A stretch of DNA of 32,000 bases, taken from Candidatus Saccharimonadota bacterium (GTDB lineage: Bacteria; Patescibacteriota; Gracilibacteria; BD1-5; UBA6164). The notes beneath the pieces are model-generated. The model did no database searches. It worked only from the letters and a program-made list of their open reading frames with translations, and was not told where the DNA came from. The stretch lies in the NCBI GenBank assembly GCA_965227835.1, contig OZ245768.1, positions 450,001 through 482,000 on the forward strand. Direction: 5' to 3'. Below are positions 22,077-31,682 of the stretch, piece by piece (within the stretch, counting starts at the first letter, position 1; the number at the start of each line of letters is the position of its first letter). A program made the translations under genes and the position numbers.

Positions 22077-23048
22077 ATGTATTGTTTAGTTTCTACATTC
22101 AACAAAACATTTGATGAACTTGGTCTTTTATATTTTGTGCCAAGTTTTTTAGAAGGAAAATTAAAAACATGACAAATAGTTGAAATACCTTTTTGAAATA
22201 AAATAGAAATAGCTTTAGTTTTAGAATTGTGAGATTTGGAGAAACTAAATGCTTCAAATATTCCTGAAGAAAAAATAAAATCGGTAATATCAATAAAAAA
22301 TGAAAATATATTTTTGAATTCTAATCAAATAAAACTAGTAAAATTTTTATCAAGCTATTATATAACCCCCATACACCATTGTTTATCATTATTTTTCCCA
22401 AAAAATCTTGTAACTAATATAAACAAAGACAAATTAGAAATAAATGATAAAGATGATATAGTCTACGGTTTTTTATTTGATAAAATTTTATCAGAAAAAC
22501 AAAATATTGTATTTGAAGAAATAAATAAAGATTATAAAAAAACAGATAATAATAGATTTTTATTACATTGAACAACGGGTAGTTGAAAAACTGAGATTTA
22601 CATAAAGCTTATTAAAAATCAGCTTGATTTAGGTAAACAAAGTTTGCTTTTAATACCAGAAATAGTTTTAACAAATCAACTGGAATTTAGGATAAAAGAA
22701 GTTTTTTGAAAAGATGTTTTGACTATAAACTCATCAATAACTGATTTATCAAAAACCAAAGCTTGGATTTCTATATACAATTGAGACTCTAAGATAATAA
22801 TATGAACTAGGTCAGCTCTTTTTTATCCTTATAATAATTTGGGATTAGTAATAATTGATGAAGAGCATGATTCATCATACATTTCAGATGTTTCTCCTAG
22901 ATATAATAGCATTAAAGTTGCTAGGAAAATAACAGAGTTAAATTGAAATAAGATGCTTTTAGCAAGTGGTACACCTAGTGTTATTAGTATGTATAAAGCA
23001 TTAAAAGGGGAGTATAAGCTTTTAAAATTATTTGAAAAATGGAAGTAG
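22077..23048 (+). CDS. priA: primosomal helicase PriA, N-terminal 323 aa only (truncated or split)
   Basis: [19 protein letters not shown] (Walker A), [12 protein letters not shown] (DExH), [31 protein letters not shown] then TAG at 23046-23048. The Cys-rich zinc region and the second RecA lobe are absent from this window. Confidence 0.8.
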
Positions 23049-23049
23049 G

Positions 23050-23090
23050 CTATTTTTTCATAAATGTTAATTTTTCAGTCTCTCTTTAAG
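23050..23090 (-). repeat. partial copy of repeat X at the priA breakpoint
   Basis: ctattttttcataaatgttaatttttcagtctctctttaag resembles attattttttcatagatattaatttttcagtctttccttaaag at about 9814-9856. Confidence 0.4.
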
Positions 23091-23101
23091 TTTTATGGCT
23101 T

Positions 23102-23980
23102 CTAATATTGGTTTATTTCTTTCATCTTTTTTTTAAACTCATCTAAAAGTCTATTTCTTATTTCTTCTCAAAAATAATGTCATATTTCGTGAAATTTTTC
23201 TTCTAACTTTTTATCAATTTTATACCACTCAATTTCTATTTCTTTCTCAGAAACTCAAATATTTTTCATTAAATTTAATTCTTCCACTTCTTCTAGAAAA
23301 TTTTCCATGAATTTACAAAAAAATACATTTGCTAATCCATCTAATTCTTTTTTTACGCTAAAATCTCTTTTTGTTCTTCAAATTCAATACCTATTTATAA
23401 ACTCTTTTTTTTGATCATTTAATATTTTATCATCTATAATTTCATTTCCGAAATCTTGTAAATAATCTAGAAATTTATAGATATTTGTATAGTGTTTAAT
23501 ATCTTTTCAATTATATATTATTCCTCATACTATTTTTGTAGAATTTTTATCTATTTCTTTTAGTATATTTATTAAATTATTTATAGGAATTCAATTCAAA
23601 ACTAAATTTAATCATACATATTTTAGATTTGGTAATTCTTTAATAGGTGTTTTTGATATTATCATATCTCATTCAACATTTTCTAAATCTGGTAAATATT
23701 CTATTTCATTTCATCCTAAATCTAAATAGCCTCTAATTCTTTTAAAATATTTTAAATTCTTTATAAAAAGTGAGCTTGTTAAATCAAGTTGTTGTCCCCA
23801 ATAAATTCAATCTAAACTTCAATCATCATTAAATTTAGTGTATTCTTCTAATTTTTCCCAAAAAATAATACCCATTGATTCTTCAACCATTTTTTCATAA
23901 TCTTTAAACTCTTTAGGAGTTAAATTTTTTCTCAAATTTTCTTTAGGAGTATAACAATACTCTTTTTTTTCTAAACTCAT
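23102..23980 (-). CDS. LRR-family paralog A (292 aa, about 4 LRRs)
   Basis: Verified codon by codon. MSLEKKEYCYTPKENLRKNLTPKEFKDYEKMVEESMGIIFWEKLEEYTKFNDDGSLDGIYWGQQLDL...GYLDLGGNEIEYLPDLENVEGDMIISKTPIKELPNLKYVGLNLVLNGIP...KKEFINRYGIGRTKRD...GVSEKEIEIEWYKIDKKLEEKFHEIGHYFGEEIRNRLLDEFKKKMKEINQY. No TAA/TAG in frame. Confidence 0.85.
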
Positions 23981-24017
23981 TTTTTAATTATTAAAATTTA
24001 TAACTATATTTTTGGAT

Positions 24018-26405
24018 CTAATTTTGGTTTATTTCTTTCATCTCTTTTCTAAATTCATCTAGGAGTCTATTTTTTATTTCCTCTCAAAAATAATGTCATA
24101 TCTCGTGAAATTTATTATCTAGTTTCTCATCAATTTTATATCGTTCAACCTCTATTTCTTTCTCAGAAGCTCAATCATTTTTCATTAATTTAATTTTCTC
24201 TACTTCAGTAATAAAATTATCCATGAATTTATAAAAAAATATATTTGCCAATATATTTAATTCTTTTTTAGTTTTTTCATCTCTTTTTGCTCTTCAAATT
24301 CAGTACCTATTTATAAATTCTTTTTTATTATCATTTAGTATATTATCATATATGGTTTTATCTCTAAAATTTTCAAGATAGTTTAGAAAGTAATATATAT
24401 CAATATAATTTTTAAACCCCGTTCAGTCATATATAGTTTTTCATCATATTTTTATAGGTCTTTCTATTATTTCTTTCAATAAACTTTCTAAAATATTTTT
24501 TGGAATTCAGTTTAAAATTAAATCTTCTCAAACTTCTTCTAATTTTGGTAAAATTTCAATATAAGTTCAAGTTAAATCTAGATTTCCTCATACATATTTC
24601 AATTTTGGTAAATCTTTTATAAAAGATCAATTTAAATTTAAATCTCATTGTACATATTCCAACTCTGGTAGATTTCTTATTTTATGTTTTTTTGATAAAA
24701 TAGAACCTACAGTTTTTAATTTTGGTAAGCTTTCTATAAAGGTTAAAGTTAAATTTAGATTTCCTCATACATACTCCAATTTTGGTAAACTTTTTATAGA
24801 ACTTCATTCTAATCTTAAGCTAAATCAAACTTTTTCTAATTTAGGTAGACTCTTTATAGGATTCCCTACCAAATGTAGATTACTTCAAACACTTTTTAAT
24901 TCTGGTAAGCCTTTTATACATTTTCAATTTAATCATCATCAAACTTTCTTTAGTTTTGGTAAACTTTCTACTTTACTTAAATACAGACTTAAACTTCATT
25001 TAACATATTCTAGATTTGGTAAACTTGTGATAAATTCTGAATTTAGTTTTAACCTTCAAAAAATTTTTTTTAAATATTTTAAATTGCTTATAGGTTTTCA
25101 CATCAAATCTAAATCTCATTTCCAATAAATTCAATCTATAAATCATTTTTTATTAAATCTAGTAAAGTCTTCTAATTTTTCCCAAGAAATAATCCCATCA
25201 GATTCCTCAACCATTTTCTCATAATCATTAAATTCTTCAGGATTTAATTTTTGTTTTAAATTTTCTTTAGAAGAAAGTTTATTTTCATTTAAATTGTTTT
25301 TTTCAATAATTAAATTTAATTCCTTAATTTCTTTTTGAAACTCATCTAAAAATCTATTTTTTGTTTCTTCTCAAAAGTAATATTTTATTTCATGAAATTT
25401 AGTATCTAGTTTTTCATTGATTTTTTTATTTAATTCTTCTTGAGAAATTCAGTTTTCTATCATCAAACTTATACTCTCTCTGTATTTTAAAAAATTTCTT
25501 GTAAAATTAATATAAATTATAGTCACAATAGTATTTAATTCTTTTTTTATACTATCATCTCTTTTTGATTTTCAATCTCAATATCTATTTATAAATTTTT
25601 CTTTAAAAGATTCTAATAATTTATCATCTATATTTTCATCTTCAAAATTTTCTATATAACTTAAAAAATTATTTCAACTTATATAAGAGTTGAGCTCCAT
25701 TCAATCATATATTATTTTTCATCATATTTCAGGAGAATTTTTCTTTATTTCTTTTAATATATTTTTTAAACTAATTTTTGGAATTCAGCTTAAATCTAAA
25801 TCACTTCAAACATATTTTAATTTTGATAAATTTTTTATAAAGGTTCAATTTAAATTCAAAACAGCTCAAACATATTTTAAATTTGGTAAACTTTTTATAG
25901 AGCTTTTATTTAAATTTAAATGAAATCAAACATATCTTAAGTTTTGCAAGTTCTTTATATAATTTTCTCTCAAAAATAAACTTCATCAAACACTTTTTAA
26001 TTTTTGTAAATACTTTATATTTTTTCAACTTAAACCTCCTCAAACTTCTTCTAATTTTGGCAAACTTTCTACTTTGCTAAAATACAAGCTCAAGCTTCAT
26101 TTTGTATATTCTAGATTTGGTAAACTTTTAATAAACTTTGAATCTAGTTTTAATTCTCAAAAAACTTTTTTTAAATATTTTAAATTGCTTATAGGTTTTC
26201 ACATTAAATCCAAATCTCATTCCCAATAAATTCAATCTATGCTTCAATCATAATTAAATTTGCTATATTTTTCTAATTTTTCCCAAGAAATAATCCCATC
26301 AGATTCTTCAACTATTCTTTCATAATCTTCGAAATCTTCAATATTTAGCTTTTTTCTAAAATTTTCTTTAAAAGAATTATTATTTTCAATTTTATCTAAA
26401 CTCAT
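24018..26405 (-). CDS. LRR-family paralog B-C: in-frame fusion of two complete modules (795 aa, about 8 + 11 LRRs)
   Basis: Verified codon by codon over all 2388 nt. Module 1: MSLDKIENNNSFKENFRKKLNIEDFEDYERIVEESDGIISWEKLEKY...FHEIKYYFGEETKNRFLDEFQKEIKE. It joins without a stop via LNLIIEKNNLNENKLSSKENLKQKLNPEEFNDYEKMVEESDGIISWEKLEDF to module 2, which ends KFHEIGHYFGEEIKNRLLDEFRKEMKEINQN. Confidence 0.85.
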
Positions 26406-26442
26406 TTTTTAATTATTAAAACTTATAACTAGAACCTTTAAT

Positions 26443-27747
26443 CTAATTTTTATTTATTTCTTTTATTTCTTTTCTAAATTCATCTAGAAATCTATTTTTT
26501 ATCTCTTTTCAAAAATAATGTCATATTTCGTGAAATTTTTCTTCTAACTTTTTATCAATTTTATACCATTCAATTTCTATTTCTTTCTCAGAAACTCAAT
26601 TTTTTTTCATTAGAGCTATCTTTTCCCTATATTTTAAAAAGTTTTTTACAAATCGTGTATAAAATAAATTAAACATTATATTTAAAATTCTCTTTACTTT
26701 ATCATCCCTCCTTGTTCTTCAAGTTCAATATATGGTTATAAATTCTTTTTTATAACTAGATATTAATTCTTCACTCATAAGCTCATTTTCAAAATTTTCT
26801 AAATAACTTAGAATACTTTTTCAATTTAAGTAAGGTTTAAAATCTATTCAATCATACATTATTTTTCACCATACTTCTGTATTATTTTCTCTTATTTCGT
26901 TTAATATATTTACTAAATTACAACTTGGAATTAAACTCAAATATAAATTCCCTCAAATTTTTTCTAATTTTGGCAAACTTTCAATATGGTTTCAGCTTAA
27001 GTATAAGTCCTCTGAAATTTCTTCTAATTCGGGTAAACTTTTTATAGAGGTTCATCTTATATCTAAACCTCAATAAACATTTTTTAATCTAGGTATACTT
27101 TTTATAGGGGTTGAATTTAAATTTAAATCTCATAAAACTATTTCTAATTTTGGTAAATTTTTTATATATACAAAGGCTAAAAATAAATTTCATTTAACTT
27201 TTTTTAATCTAGGTATACTTTTCATAGTAGTTGAATTTAAATTTAAATAAAATCAAACTTCTTCTAATTTTGGTAAGCTTTTTATATTGGTATAACTTAA
27301 ATCTAATTCTCTTGATACATATTCTAATTTTGGTAAACTTTTTATAGCTGATCATTTAAAATATGCTTCTCATAAAACTTTTTCTAAGTTTGGTAAACGT
27401 TTTATAGGGGTTTTCTGTAAATCTAAAAAACCAAAAACATTTTTTAAATAAGATAACTTTTTTATAGATGTTTCATATAGATATAAACATCATTTAATTT
27501 CTTTTAGTTTTGATAAACTTGTTATAGGCTTATAATTTAAATTTAAATCTCATTCCCAATAAATTCAATCTAATTTTCAATTGTCACGAAATCTACTATA
27601 TTTTTTCAGTTTTTCCCACGAAATAATCCCTTCAGATTCCTGAACCATTCTTTCATAGTCTTTGAAATCTTTATGGGTTAGATTATTTTTTAGATATTCT
27701 TCATAAATTGATTTTTGCTCGTTTGTTTTTGGAACATTTTTTGTCAT
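26443..27747 (-). CDS. LRR-family paralog D (434 aa, about 11 LRRs)
   Basis: Verified codon by codon. MTKNVPKTNEQKSIYEEYLKNNLTHKDFKDYERMVQESEGIISWEKLKKY. The LRR block has an exact 60-bp DNA period across about 26941-27570 (for example LPKLEEVGFYLNLNSTTMKSIPRLKKVKGNLFLAFVYIKN). C-terminus KFHEIGHYFGKEIKNRFLDEFRKEIKEINKN. Confidence 0.85.
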
Positions 27748-27783
27748 ATCTTATATTTTATGTATTAGATATTTTTATCTTGA

Positions 27784-27811
27784 ATAATAAAATTTTTGTT
27801 TTGTTTGTCAA
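27784..27811 (-). promoter_or_regulatory. putative promoter of paralog D (TTGACA-N16-TATTAT)
   Basis: Minus strand: TTGACA is the complement of 27806-27811 and TATTAT the complement of 27784-27789. About 37 nt upstream of the ATG at 27747. The same architecture occurs upstream of paralog F. Confidence 0.4.
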
Positions 27812-27861
27812 ATATAATGTATATATTAAATTTAATTTATAGTCAAGATTTAGAGTAAAAT

Positions 27862-27887
27862 AAAAAAACAAGTTTTAACTTGTTTTT
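27862..27887 (-). terminator. intrinsic terminator after the TrmB-family gene
   Basis: aaaaacaagtt/aacttgttttt perfect inverted repeat. On the minus strand it is followed by a T7 run. Confidence 0.5.
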
Positions 27888-27948
27888 CATAATTAATTTT
27901 TTACTCGAAATTTAAATATTTTTTCTAACTTTTATTTGTAGTATTTAA

Positions 27949-28674
27949 TTAATTATTCTTCAAAAACCTAAATAATAGTTTAAACAACTTTTTCTCAAAA
28001 TTAGAAAAAATTTGGCTTTCAATTATAAAACACTCTTCGGTGTTATAGTCTATAATTGCTACCTTATTTGCATAAATTATTTTAACTATATTGTCTTCAA
28101 ATATATCAAAATCTTTTGGAACTATAACAACTTCTTTTTCTAGTTTTTCTTTTTTTATATTCCTTAAATAATCATTTGTAATAACCATTCTTTCTAATTG
28201 TTTATTATCTCTGATTTTTTTATATTTACTATATTGATTCTCTGACATATTGGTTTTTCTAGAACTATATCTATAAAATATATCTCATTTATTTAAACTA
28301 TTTGCTATATCTAAAAATACATTTTTTACTCCACTTCTTCAAGATAAATGTTTAAATATTGGTTTTTTAAAATTATTTTGATATATACTTTGCAACTCTG
28401 GAATAAATAGTTTAAAATCACTTTTTATATTTTCAAAGTATGAATTTAAAATTAAGGGGTCTTCAGCTATAAAACATTTTCTCTTTCAAATTATTACTTT
28501 TGATATGATTCAATTTTCTTCCATTGAAGGAAGTATTTTATATAGCTTTGGCCTATTAATTCATAATTTAATAGATATATCACTTATATTCTTACTAGGG
28601 TTCTTTATTAAAAATAAATATATTTTTGATTCATCTGGTGTCAATCATAGTTTTTCTAATATTTTTTCTTTCAT
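27949..28674 (-). CDS. TrmB-family winged-helix transcriptional regulator (241 aa)
   Basis: MKEKILEKLGLTPDESKIYLFLIKNPSKNISDISIKLGINRPKLYKILPSMEENGIISKVIIGKRKCFIAEDP. The ORF-track fragment 27949-28248 is its C-terminal 99 aa, and the reading frame extends upstream through TGA codons. Confidence 0.75.
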
Positions 28675-28767
28675 TTTTAAATATGTAAATAAATATTACA
28701 ACTTTATTATATTTAAGTTTTATTTTTATTAAAGTCTTTTTTAGGTTTATTTATATTTTTATATTAC

Positions 28768-28779
28768 ATATACGTATAT
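28768..28779. promoter_or_regulatory. 12-bp perfect palindrome ATATACGTATAT in the divergent TrmB/PHP promoter region
   Basis: Seen directly. It lies between the divergent starts at 28674 and 28842 and is a candidate operator only. Confidence 0.25.
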
Positions 28780-28841
28780 TTTTTTACATATTTTGTAATT
28801 AGAACTATTATCTAAATACATTATTTTTTAATTTTATTTTT

Positions 28842-29765
28842 ATGTTTGATATGCATTTCCATTCTACTATATCAGATTGACATAGTACTACTGAACAAAT
28901 TTTAGATAAAGCATCTAGCTCAGGTTTAAATTTTGCTACTTTAACAGACCATGATTTTATAAGCCCTAAAGATTTTATAAAAAAGATAAAGTCGCTTTGA
29001 ATTGATTCTAAGTATTCTGTAGAAATATCTGCTAGGAATATAGATGTAAATAAAAATCTTCATCTAACTTGTTACTCAAATGATTTTTCTAAAGACATTT
29101 ATGATATTTTAGAAAATACTCGTTCTTGAAAGCAAAATATGGTTTTTTCTCAAGTTAAAAAACTTCAAGAAAAATGATTTAAAATAGAATATAATGATTT
29201 TATAGCTTATTTTGAATCTAAATGAAAAAGAAAAGATTCACTCAATAAGATTAGAATTGCAGAATTTATATTTTTGAATGATGAAAATATAAAACTAGCC
29301 AAAACTATTTCTTGAAATAATGATATAGATGTAATTTCTTTTCTTACAGGTTTTTTAAAAATTGGATGAAGTTTTCATAGGCAATATTGAATTGAATTTC
29401 CTGAATATGAACCTAATGTAGAATTATGTTGAGAGTTGGCAAAGTTTAATAATGCTATACTATCTATAGCCCATCCTAACTTTACTTTTGCAAGAGATCA
29501 TATTTCTGGTTTCAAAGATTCTTTACCTTACTATATAGATAGATGAGTAAATGCTATAGAAATAAGCTCTAAAGCTTCAATTAAATGGATAGAAGCTATT
29601 TATGAAGCAAAAAAAAGATATTGACTTATACTAACTGCTTGAAGTGATAATCATTGAATATGAATTGACGATAATAAACATGCTGATTTTTGAAATTTAA
29701 ATCCAAATTTATCTTTTGAAGATAAGAAAAATATTTTAAAAGAATTTTTGGAGTTTAAATATTAA
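28842..29765 (+). CDS. PHP-domain metal-dependent phosphoesterase (TrpH/YciV-like), 307 aa
   Basis: MFDMHFHSTISDGHSTTEQILDKASSSGLNFATLTDHDF, SIAHPNF, and LTAGSDNHGIG are the canonical PHP His/Asp motifs. TAA at 29763-29765. Confidence 0.8.
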
Positions 29766-29831
29766 TAATTCAAAGATTTTGCTTATAATGGTTATATCTA
29801 AAAAAATATATAGAAAAATTTCTATCTATTT

Positions 29832-30569
29832 TTAATTTGTTTTTCGTATAGCTCTTTGAAGTTCATCACAAATCCTATTTTTTATTTCTTCTCAAAAATA
29901 ATACTCTATATAATCAAGTTTTTCTTCTAATTTTTTATAAACTTCTTTAGCATAATTTTTTCTTTCTTCCTCGCAGACTCAATTATTTTTCATTAGATTT
30001 ATTTTTTCTATTTCTTTTAAATAATTTTCTATGAATTTATAAAAAAATACATTTGCTAATACATCTAATTCTTTTTTTACACTAAAATCTCTTTTTGTTA
30101 TTCAAATTCAATACCTATTTATAAACTCTTTTTTATGATTATTTAATATTTTATCATCTATAATTTCATTTCCGAAATCTTGTAAGTAAATTAAAAAATT
30201 ATAGATTTTTATATAAGAATTAATATCAATTGAATTAAACAAATTCATATAAGGTTCCATATTAATTCAATTGTACATAATTTTTAATCGTATTTTTTTA
30301 TTTATTACATCTATTATATTTATTAAATATGTTCTATTTATTATATTATTTAAATTATCTATAGGTATTCAGCTTAAATCTAAATCTCAGTAAATTCAAA
30401 TTAGAAATCAATGATCATAAAAAAAAGTATGTTTTTCTAATTTCTCCCAGGAAATAATACCTTTAGATTCTTTAACTATTTTTTCATAATGGTTGAATTG
30501 TAGAGGAAGTAACTTTCTTCTTAATTTTTCTTTCGAAGAAAAATAATTTTTTATTTTATTTAAAAGCAT
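29832..30569 (-). CDS. LRR-family paralog E (245 aa, one residual LRR)
   Basis: Verified codon by codon. MLLNKIKNYFSSKEKLRRKLLPLQFNHYEKIVKESKGIISWEKLEKHTFFYDHGFLIGIYGDLDLSGIPIDNL...KKEFINRYGIGITKRD...LDYIEYYFGEEIKNRICDELQRAIRKTN. Confidence 0.8.
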
Positions 30570-30612
30570 TTATTTAACTATTAAAATTATAATTTTTAAA
30601 TTATTTCTATTT

Positions 30613-31518
30613 TTAATTTGTTTTTCATATAGCTCTTTGAAGTTCATTACAAATCCTATTTTTTATTTCTTCTCAAAAATAATACTCTATATAATCAAGT
30701 TTTTCTTCTAATTTTTTATAAACTTCTTTAGCATAATTTTTTCTTTCTTCCTCGCAGACTCAATTATTTTTCATTAGATTTATTTTTTCTATTTCTTTTA
30801 AATAATTTTCTATGAATTTAACATAAAATATATTTATAAATAAAGACAATTGTTTTTTTACTATATTTGATCTTGCCATTTTTCAAGTTCAATATATGCT
30901 TATAAGTTCTTCTTTATAAACATTTATTAATTCTTTATCTATATCTTTATCTTCAAAATCTTGTAAGTAAATTAAAAAATTATAGATTTTTATATAAGAA
31001 TTAATATTCATTGAATTATAAATACCCATATAAGGTTTCATATTGGTTCAATTGTATATAATTTTTCATCATATTTTTACTTCTTTTTTACCTATTTCAT
31101 ATAGTATATTACTTAAAGTATCTATAGTTATTCAACTTAGGTCTAAATCTTTTCAAACATATTCTAAACCTTTCAAATTTTCTATAAGAGATCAGTTTAA
31201 ATATAAACTTCATTTAATAATTTTTGATATTATTAAATCTTTTATTTTAGAATTAGTTAAATATAAATCTCATGAAATACCTTTTAAAAGAACTAAAAAT
31301 TCTATCGATACTCAGCTTAAATCTAAATTTCATTCCCAATAAATTGAAATTAAAATTCAATCTTCATGAAAAATACTATATTCTTCTAATTTTTCCCAAG
31401 TAATTACACCTTTAGATTTTTCAATTATTTCTTTATAATACTTGAATCTGCTAGTAAGTAATTTTTTTCTCAACCTCTCTTCGGAAGAAAAATAATTTTT
31501 TATTTTATTTAAAAGCAT
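30613..31518 (-). CDS. LRR-family paralog F (301 aa, about 4 LRRs)
   Basis: Verified codon by codon. MLLNKIKNYFSSEERLRKKLLTSRFKYYKEIIEKSKGVITWEKLEEYSIFHEDGILISIYWEGNLDLSGVSIEFL...GSLYLNGSLIENLKGLEYVGKDLDLSGITIDTL...LDYIEYYFGEEIKNRICNELQRAIGKTN. Confidence 0.8.
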
Positions 31519-31554
31519 TTATTTAACTATTAATTACAGAATTATCTATTTTAG

Positions 31555-31582
31555 ATAATATATTTATTTTCTTATTTGTCAA
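31555..31582 (-). promoter_or_regulatory. putative promoter of paralog F (TTGACA-N16-TATTAT)
   Basis: Minus strand: TTGACA is the complement of 31577-31582 and TATTAT the complement of 31555-31560. About 37 nt upstream of the ATG at 31518. Confidence 0.4.
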
Positions 31583-31628
31583 GATTGCTTTTACCTTAAT
31601 AATACTATTTTAAAGACTTATAGAAATT

Positions 31629-31655
31629 AAAAAAATCTTCTAAAATATTAGAAGA
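31629..31655 (-). terminator. intrinsic terminator after the ABC-F gene
   Basis: tcttcta-aaatat-tagaaga hairpin (31636-31655). On the minus strand it is followed by T7 (complement of 31629-31635). Confidence 0.5.
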
Positions 31656-31682
31656 GTTCTAAAAAAATAATATCAAAAGATT

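Follow-up and report, generated by a model that had tools for sequence, protein, structure and literature searches.

Evidence for gene conversion between tandem LRR paralogs in a code-25 bacterium

Results

An island of LRR genes

The window, by which we mean the whole 32-kb stretch of DNA analysed, belongs to a genome represented by a single contig of 1.489 Mb with a completeness of 97.6%. Under translation table 11 the entire 32-kb window yields two ORFs of at least 100 aa; coding becomes dense once TGA is read as a sense codon. The amino acid it specifies is glycine and not tryptophan: TGA codons occupy the positions of the invariant Walker-A glycines in DnaX, and the codon counts (372 TGA against 109 for all GGN codons and 40 TGG) make TGA the main glycine codon. 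The organism is a code-25 bacterium (TGA=Gly) of the Gracilibacteria/Absconditabacteria type.

When the LRR region was read with code 25, its minus strand was found to carry five ORFs, every one complete and with a start codon, that together comprise six LRR modules. Paralog A (23102-23980; 292 aa) contains an N-cap, ~3 LRR units and a C-terminal helical domain. The neighbouring ORF (24018-26405; 795 aa) is a fused two-module gene, B+C, in which module C (25284-26405) forms the N-terminal half and module B (24018-25283) the C-terminal half; the fusion junction near 25284 (25240-25320) no longer has a stop codon and retains only a small part of the usual 37-nt spacer. Paralog D (26443-27747; 434 aa) has ~10 LRR units and paralog F (30613-31518; 301 aa) has ~3. 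Paralog E (29832-30569; 245 aa) has no LRR unit at all, with the residues GIY running directly into the last LDLSGIP motif (30340-30400), apparently as if intragenic recombination had deleted the sequence between the first and last LDLSG motifs.

On the gene strand, the best promoter-like matches, each reading TTGACA-16-TATTAT (11/12, a consensus match only), are located just upstream of D (27784-27811) and just upstream of F (31555-31582), which suggests two arrays, D-CB-A headed by D and F-E headed by F. Within each array the LRR copies are apparently co-transcribed. Between the arrays, separating D from E, lie a TrmB-family HTH regulator (27949-28674, minus strand; Pfam TrmB, 1.5e-12) and a PHP-domain phosphoesterase (28842-29765, plus strand; Pfam PHP, 2.8e-8, with NCBIfam matches under the cut-off). 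Both are island passengers, and no link of the TrmB-like regulator to the LRR family was shown.

The block formed by the six LRR modules, the TrmB-like regulator and the PHP phosphoesterase spans 8.6 kb (23049-31682). It is bordered on the left by a priA-like gene (22077-23048, plus strand) and on the right by an ABC-F gene (from 31683, minus strand), the two being convergent. In a genome of the same genus (G001) the priA-like and ABC-F genes are only 8 bp apart (L015 3221/3230), and the block in the window is therefore a lineage-specific island; the ABC-F end is 87% identical between the window and G001. We noticed neither an integrase nor a tRNA nor a flanking repeat at the island. The bordering priA-like gene is the sole one in the genome and encodes 323 aa, corresponding to the 3'-DNA-binding domain and the first helicase lobe, and the genome contains no PriA_C domain. 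Truncation of priA by the LRR array was considered and rejected, as relatives carry the same ~320-aa form; the occurrence of this form across a family of genomes identifies the short PriA-like protein as a lineage trait.

Architecture and relatives of the LRR proteins

All members share one architecture, with a hydrophilic N-terminal region of ~65 aa, between 0 and ~10 LRR units, and a C-terminal domain of ~170 aa. The LRR unit is 20 residues long and its DNA period is exactly 60 bp, in frame, which bears out the 60-bp in-frame repeats described in the original prediction. A consensus derived from forty units, LxLxGTxIKxLPKLExVGGx, shows low entropy at positions 1, 3, 8, 11, 14 and 17, and the variable positions of the unit fall at non-scaffold sites.

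Searched against the PDB, the LRR profile matched FlrP (8Z5U, E=1.1e-12), YopM (5e-5) and IpaH (~0.02-0.05). In Pfam, LRR_4 scored under the cut-off and Recep_L_domain reached 28.1 bits (cut-off 21.8). These matches assign the repeats, by profile, to the bacterial 20-residue LRR class, and the LRR domains of FlrP, YopM and IpaH/SspH have the same class and the same 20-residue period as the family in the window. Outside the repeats the proteins differ. FlrP is a polar flagellar motor protein of Vibrio (PDB 8Z5U; bioRxiv 10.64898/2025.12.04.692373) with a Sec signal peptide and without extra domains, whereas the window family lacks a signal peptide and carries private N- and C-terminal domains. 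IpaH/SspH proteins possess a NEL E3-ligase domain, which is absent from the window family; the IpaH/SspH matches are restricted to the LRR region, and an NCBIfam SspH2 match is likewise confined to the LRR part.

A profile of the C-terminal domain was compared with 1.84 billion representative proteins and recovered nothing other than the copies of this genome and a single ENA contig; in Pfam, NCBIfam and the PDB it had no match outside its own family. Searches with the N- and C-terminal domains against Pfam, NCBIfam and PADLOC returned nothing past weak LRR matches, PADLOC giving no match. In the AF2 model of A (pLDDT 86.8), a helical cap is followed by a short region of strands and then by a long bundle of helices; short periodic strands cover residues 48-130, and this copy has only ~3 LRR units. 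When the whole model of A was searched with Foldseek against PDB and BFVD, no match with E<0.1 and no significant LRR match was obtained. Unlike FlrP, YopM and IpaH/SspH, the window family thus has N- and C-terminal domains for which no sequence or fold relatives were found. On these searches and the predicted model, the LRR family is essentially private to the lineage, with a fold that had no relatives in PDB or BFVD.

No signal peptide or TM segment was detected: the N-termini are hydrophilic, and the maximum KD over 19-residue segments is 1.35. The LRR proteins are therefore predicted to be soluble and signal-less, and non-classical export may occur.

Other copies of the family

The genome contains ~17 modules of the family, amounting to ~1.5% of its length: six lie in the window, one stands alone at 509 kb (S509), and the remainder form a second cluster at 922-935 kb. 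No member was found in the 30 related genomes searched, two of which belong to the same genus. A 28-nt DNA probe for the invariant YFGEEIKNR motif, run against metagenome and genome contigs, had one match (L010), which was rejected as a family member since it lies on an unrelated eukaryotic contig; the genome contigs returned no match.

The second cluster resembles that of the window in architecture and behaviour, including a two-module fusion gene analogous to B+C (X4, genome positions 926145-928415). It differs in being a distinct subfamily, with ~40% protein identity to the window cluster, in being far more homogenised, and in being interrupted by IS elements (IS200-like and IS5-like copies), some of which disrupt family copies. 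Its tracts of 100% identity extend over 763 nt (X8/X9), 413 nt (X3/X4) and 311 nt (X2/X6). Stringent blastn detected no tracts between the first and second clusters, which fits a homology-dependent mechanism given that the clusters are only ~40% identical as proteins.

The ENA contig recovered with the C-terminal domain (L009; ENA ERZ25074195, only 3.6x coverage) comes from a related species and carries the locus orthologous to S509, its flanks matching at 87-92% identity. Most of the C-terminal domain is conserved at 87-93% between the two orthologs; over ~45-60 nt their identity falls to 51-53%, and in this patch the L009 copy is D-like (82-87%) while S509 is B-like. The patch is supported by the triplet test described below (p=3e-4) and by an AU test (p=0.013). 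A paralog-derived patch in one of two orthologs implies that segment replacement went on after the S509 and L009 lineages split. Read from the alignments, segment replacement also reaches a locus ~30 kb from the array.

As a separate observation on the same contig, sequence resembling 440-450 kb of the genome (L009 1-6502) is joined straight to sequence resembling 513-508 kb (L009 6640-12075). On the alignment this junction is a rearrangement or a deletion of ~58 kb that would take in the island region of the window.

Near-identical tracts between diverged paralogs

Pairs of paralogs are 66-85% identical across the C-terminal domain in a 486-column codon alignment, and this is the background against which the tracts stand out. 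The original prediction had proposed four near-identical intervals among otherwise diverged genes. Compared ungapped, these gave 89/90 for A 23169-23258 against D 26510-26599, 148/154 for A 23307-23461 against E 30031-30184 (with one 1-nt length offset at the end), 206/208 for E 29832-30039 against F 30613-30820, and 55/57 for E 30176-30232 against F 30957-31013, all in agreement with what had been claimed.

The tracts, all on the minus strand, were then refined by blastn with stringent scoring. The A/D tract covers 91 nt with 1 mismatch (23168-23258 in A, 26509-26599 in D), and the A/E tract covers 163 nt with 7 mismatches (23299-23461 in A); its counterpart, the A-like patch in E, lies at 30023-30185. 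Three tracts join E and F: 208 nt with 2 mismatches at the 3' end (29832-30039 in E, 30613-30820 in F), an internal tract of 52 nt at 100% (30175-30226 and 30956-31007), and 50 nt at 100% over the start codon and leader (30535-30584 and 31484-31533). A B/C tract of 84 nt at 95% (25056-25139 in B, 26157-26240 in C) sits within a longer region of 82-98% B/C similarity that covers the N-cap and the first LRR units. The prediction had also held that the LRR blocks are much more diverged than the tracts; this does not apply to B/C, where the 82-98% similarity includes the first LRR units, whereas the embedding of tracts in paralogs that are 66-85% identical stands. The strongest tracts are located in the non-LRR C-terminal domain.

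Along this domain, individual genes do not keep a single nearest relative. That of A shifts from E (93-98%) to D (96-100%); that of E is first F, then A, then F again. The breakpoints in E fall inside blocks of 9-11 nt common to A, E and F in the three-way alignment, namely TAAATTCAT at ~30031-30039 and TTACAAGATTT at ~30176-30186. Breakpoints in shared blocks are what a short conversion tract, resolved within microhomology, would be expected to leave. Reading frames are intact across the ~150-nt internal patch of E.

Repeat families are classic trouble spots for assembly, and a mosaic could be produced by mis-joining or cross-polishing of paralogs, or by strain consensus, in a metagenome-derived genome. 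The databases searched hold one assembly of this genome, in which each family member lies on one contig. That assembly, however, is a single 1.49-Mb contig that separates hundreds of 1.2-1.4-kb IS copies at 99-100% identity; it resolves 383 pairs of at least 99%, up to 1.4 kb in length, and keeps apart the 763-nt exact repeat of the second cluster, so that tracts of 50-208 nt are well inside its resolving power. Flanks of ~70% identity are too diverged for reads to be mis-mapped in polishing, and a mis-join would delete or duplicate the intervening genes and not leave an internal 150-nt patch with intact frames. In addition, a comparable patch is present in L009, an independent assembly of a related species. 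We consider an artefact highly improbable.

The repeat content of the genome is itself an observation. The genome is IS-rich, and its 383 repeat pairs of at least 99% include several families of 1.2-1.4 kb (for example 218316-219666, 1194852-1196202 and 231283-232567).

Formal tests of recombination

A GENECONV-style test, the kind of check proposed along with the predicted conversion, was performed by permuting the 273 polymorphic sites of the C-terminal-domain alignment. It returned significant conversion tracts, with global p values of 0.0002 for E/F (194/196), 0.0002 for A/E (155/162) and 0.011 for A/D (76/76). The PHI test gave p=0.0002. In a 3SEQ-style triplet test with 400,000 permutations, E was scored as a child of (A,F), its A-like patch at 30023-30185, and A as a child of (D,E), each with p<=2.5e-6, and both survive Bonferroni correction for 168 triplets. 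The informative sites of E form a clean F...A...F string (q..P..q). The permutation tests assume exchangeable sites; the sole safeguard here is that identity in these columns is not raised for other pairs.

Maximum-likelihood trees of three segments reproduced the switch, placing E with F (support 100/98), then A with E (94/95, with B as sister and F remote), then E with F again (100/100). AU tests rejected the A+E grouping in both flanking segments (p=8e-7 and 0.004); in the middle segment the forced E+F grouping was not formally rejected (p=0.073). The description of E as a chimera with an A-like middle and an F-like 3' end is confirmed by the triplet test and the three-way alignment, which order it as F-like, A-like and F-like.

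Values of pS were 0-0.04 inside the tracts and 0.20-0.40 outside them, and other pairs reached 0.23-0.65 over the same columns as the tracts. These values bear on the proposal that no recombination took place and that very strong purifying selection, or recent duplications diverging unevenly, left some segments alike. Some tracts do span well-conserved protein motifs such as HYFGEEIKNR, as this proposal would have it. Protein-level constraint nevertheless cannot account for tract identity, because the synonymous sites are identical too, and uneven rates cannot yield a nearest relative that shifts along the length of a gene with strong support. Divergence without recombination is extremely improbable, and constraint as its cause is refuted, as far as sequence analysis goes, by the segment trees, pS and triplet tests.

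A targeted mutator, such as a diversity-generating retroelement (DGR), is another conceivable source of diversification. CPR genomes often carry DGRs, which gives the suggestion some general plausibility. However, there was no RVT_1 match anywhere in the 97.6%-complete, one-contig genome, the mismatches of the A/E tract show no adenine specificity on either strand, and the copies differ by whole-segment replacement and not by point hypermutation. The chance that such an element drives the diversification appears negligible.

Together, the GENECONV-like, PHI and 3SEQ-like tests, the segment trees and pS uphold the predicted footprint of gene conversion between paralogs. The footprint is real and statistically solid, and reflects a known process at work in an LRR family that is unusual and private to its lineage.

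Polarity of the tracts

Within E, the patch clusters with A and B and the flanks cluster with F; the A-like sequence was therefore probably copied into E, with A or an A-like gene as the likely donor. For the A/D tract, D is probably the recipient, as the segment appears native to the A/B lineage.

Mismatches are more frequent in the A/E tract (7/163) than in the flanking E/F tracts (2/260). This suggests an A-like donor that has since been altered or lost, or separate later events between E and F: a simple A-into-E transfer would fit the 7/163 divergence only with an A-like donor copy that changed after the event, or with separate homogenisation of the E/F flanks.

The differences between A and E within the tract are non-synonymous in 6 of 7 cases and synonymous in 1. 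Selection or relaxed constraint after transfer may underlie this excess, for which n=7 is too small to test.

Discussion

We have good confidence that the patchwork was produced by RecA-type ectopic gene conversion together with unequal crossing-over on an evolutionary time-scale. The genome encodes RecA. During repair or replication restart, a RecA filament of one copy would invade another at a short shared block, ~50-200 nt would be copied, and the event would be resolved in the next shared block. Unequal crossing-over, both on the 60-bp repeats and between tandem genes, could then generate the range of 0-10 units, the LRR-less E and the B+C fusion. The net effect would be a shuffled repertoire of binding proteins and not a programmed switch. 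We infer RecA dependence and non-reciprocity of transfer, neither of which a single sequence can demonstrate.

Gene conversion among tandem LRR genes is textbook knowledge in plants and vertebrates. To our knowledge, it has rarely been documented by formal tests in bacteria, and not in code-25 Patescibacteria. In plants, clustered NBS-LRR/R-genes evolve by gene conversion and unequal crossing-over (reviewed in PMC3645687), and in mammals gene conversion has affected the clustered LRR receptor genes TLR1 and TLR6 (PMC2077338). As in plant R-gene clusters and TLR1/TLR6, the tandem LRR paralogs described here swap short tracts, giving mosaics, variable repeat numbers and partial homogenisation, and the same means of detection, GENECONV-type tests combined with incongruent segment trees, were used in the plant R-gene and TLR studies. 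The window family differs from the plant and TLR genes in belonging to a bacterium with a 1.5-Mb genome in which TGA encodes glycine, in having no NB-ARC or TIR domain, and in having its strongest tracts in a non-LRR domain. Our literature search yielded no publication on LRR families in Gracilibacteria; the sole related remark concerns LRR expansions in Saccharibacteria (TM7) (PMC7739484).

The original prediction went further and read the mosaicism as the pattern of cassette exchange in contingency or antigenic-variation families. Programmed antigenic variation by segmental gene conversion operates in Neisseria pilE/pilS, Borrelia vlsE, Treponema tprK and Mycoplasma genitalium mgpB/MgPar. 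Applied here, the paralogs would be cassettes that are often recombined into an expressed copy within the population, varying a protein exposed to host or phage. The likeness to these systems lies in short non-reciprocal tracts copied between diverged paralogs by homologous recombination; tandem arrays of diverged paralogs with segmental mosaicism, variable LRR-unit positions at non-scaffold sites, and expansion to ~17 modules in a 1.49-Mb genome all speak for such an arrangement. The known systems, however, combine one expressed surface-protein gene with silent partial cassettes and high-frequency switching, whereas all copies in the window family, known here from one genome sequence, are complete and apparently co-transcribed, with signal-less products. 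There are no truncated or promoterless cassettes in the window, whose five complete ORFs form two promoter-led arrays, and the encoded proteins have neither signal peptide nor TM segment. None of the window members contains an A/T run of at least 9 or a G/C run of at least 6, and no recombinase gene was seen among the island ORFs. Invertible promoters were considered and rejected, as the inverted repeats around the promoters are only AT-rich and of low complementarity. Finally, tract divergences of 0-4% point to events spread over evolutionary time. With no silent cassettes, surface signal, hypermutable repeats, invertible promoter or reverse transcriptase found, this part of the prediction is not supported, and we regard programmed variation as very unlikely.

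Gene conversion on an evolutionary time-scale remains our preferred reading, and it leaves room for a function in recognition. Small genomes are the rule in code-25 Patescibacteria, which makes a family that occupies ~1.5% of the genome conspicuous. Since the island is missing from the congener, the family is a candidate for a recently evolved function in interaction with host or phage. A stronger version, which we think unlikely, is that the ~17 modules constitute a standing set of intracellular LRR binders, shuffled by recombination, that sense phage or host proteins, with conversion frequent enough to create new specificities within the population. If that were so, the family of this episymbiotic or predatory CPR-type bacterium would be the counterpart of R-gene clusters in plants or of lamprey VLR cassettes, and its orphan C-terminal domain would act as a novel module for signalling or as an effector.

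The locus also bears on annotation and phylogenetics. Standard-code gene calling overlooks the LRR family entirely, and the mosaicism means that single-gene trees or read mapping at LRR loci mislead unless recombination is considered. Opposite the LRR arrays, the plus strand contains ORFs of 90-99 aa (25690-25962 and 31043-31342), which most likely arise mechanically from the AT-rich, periodic repeat.
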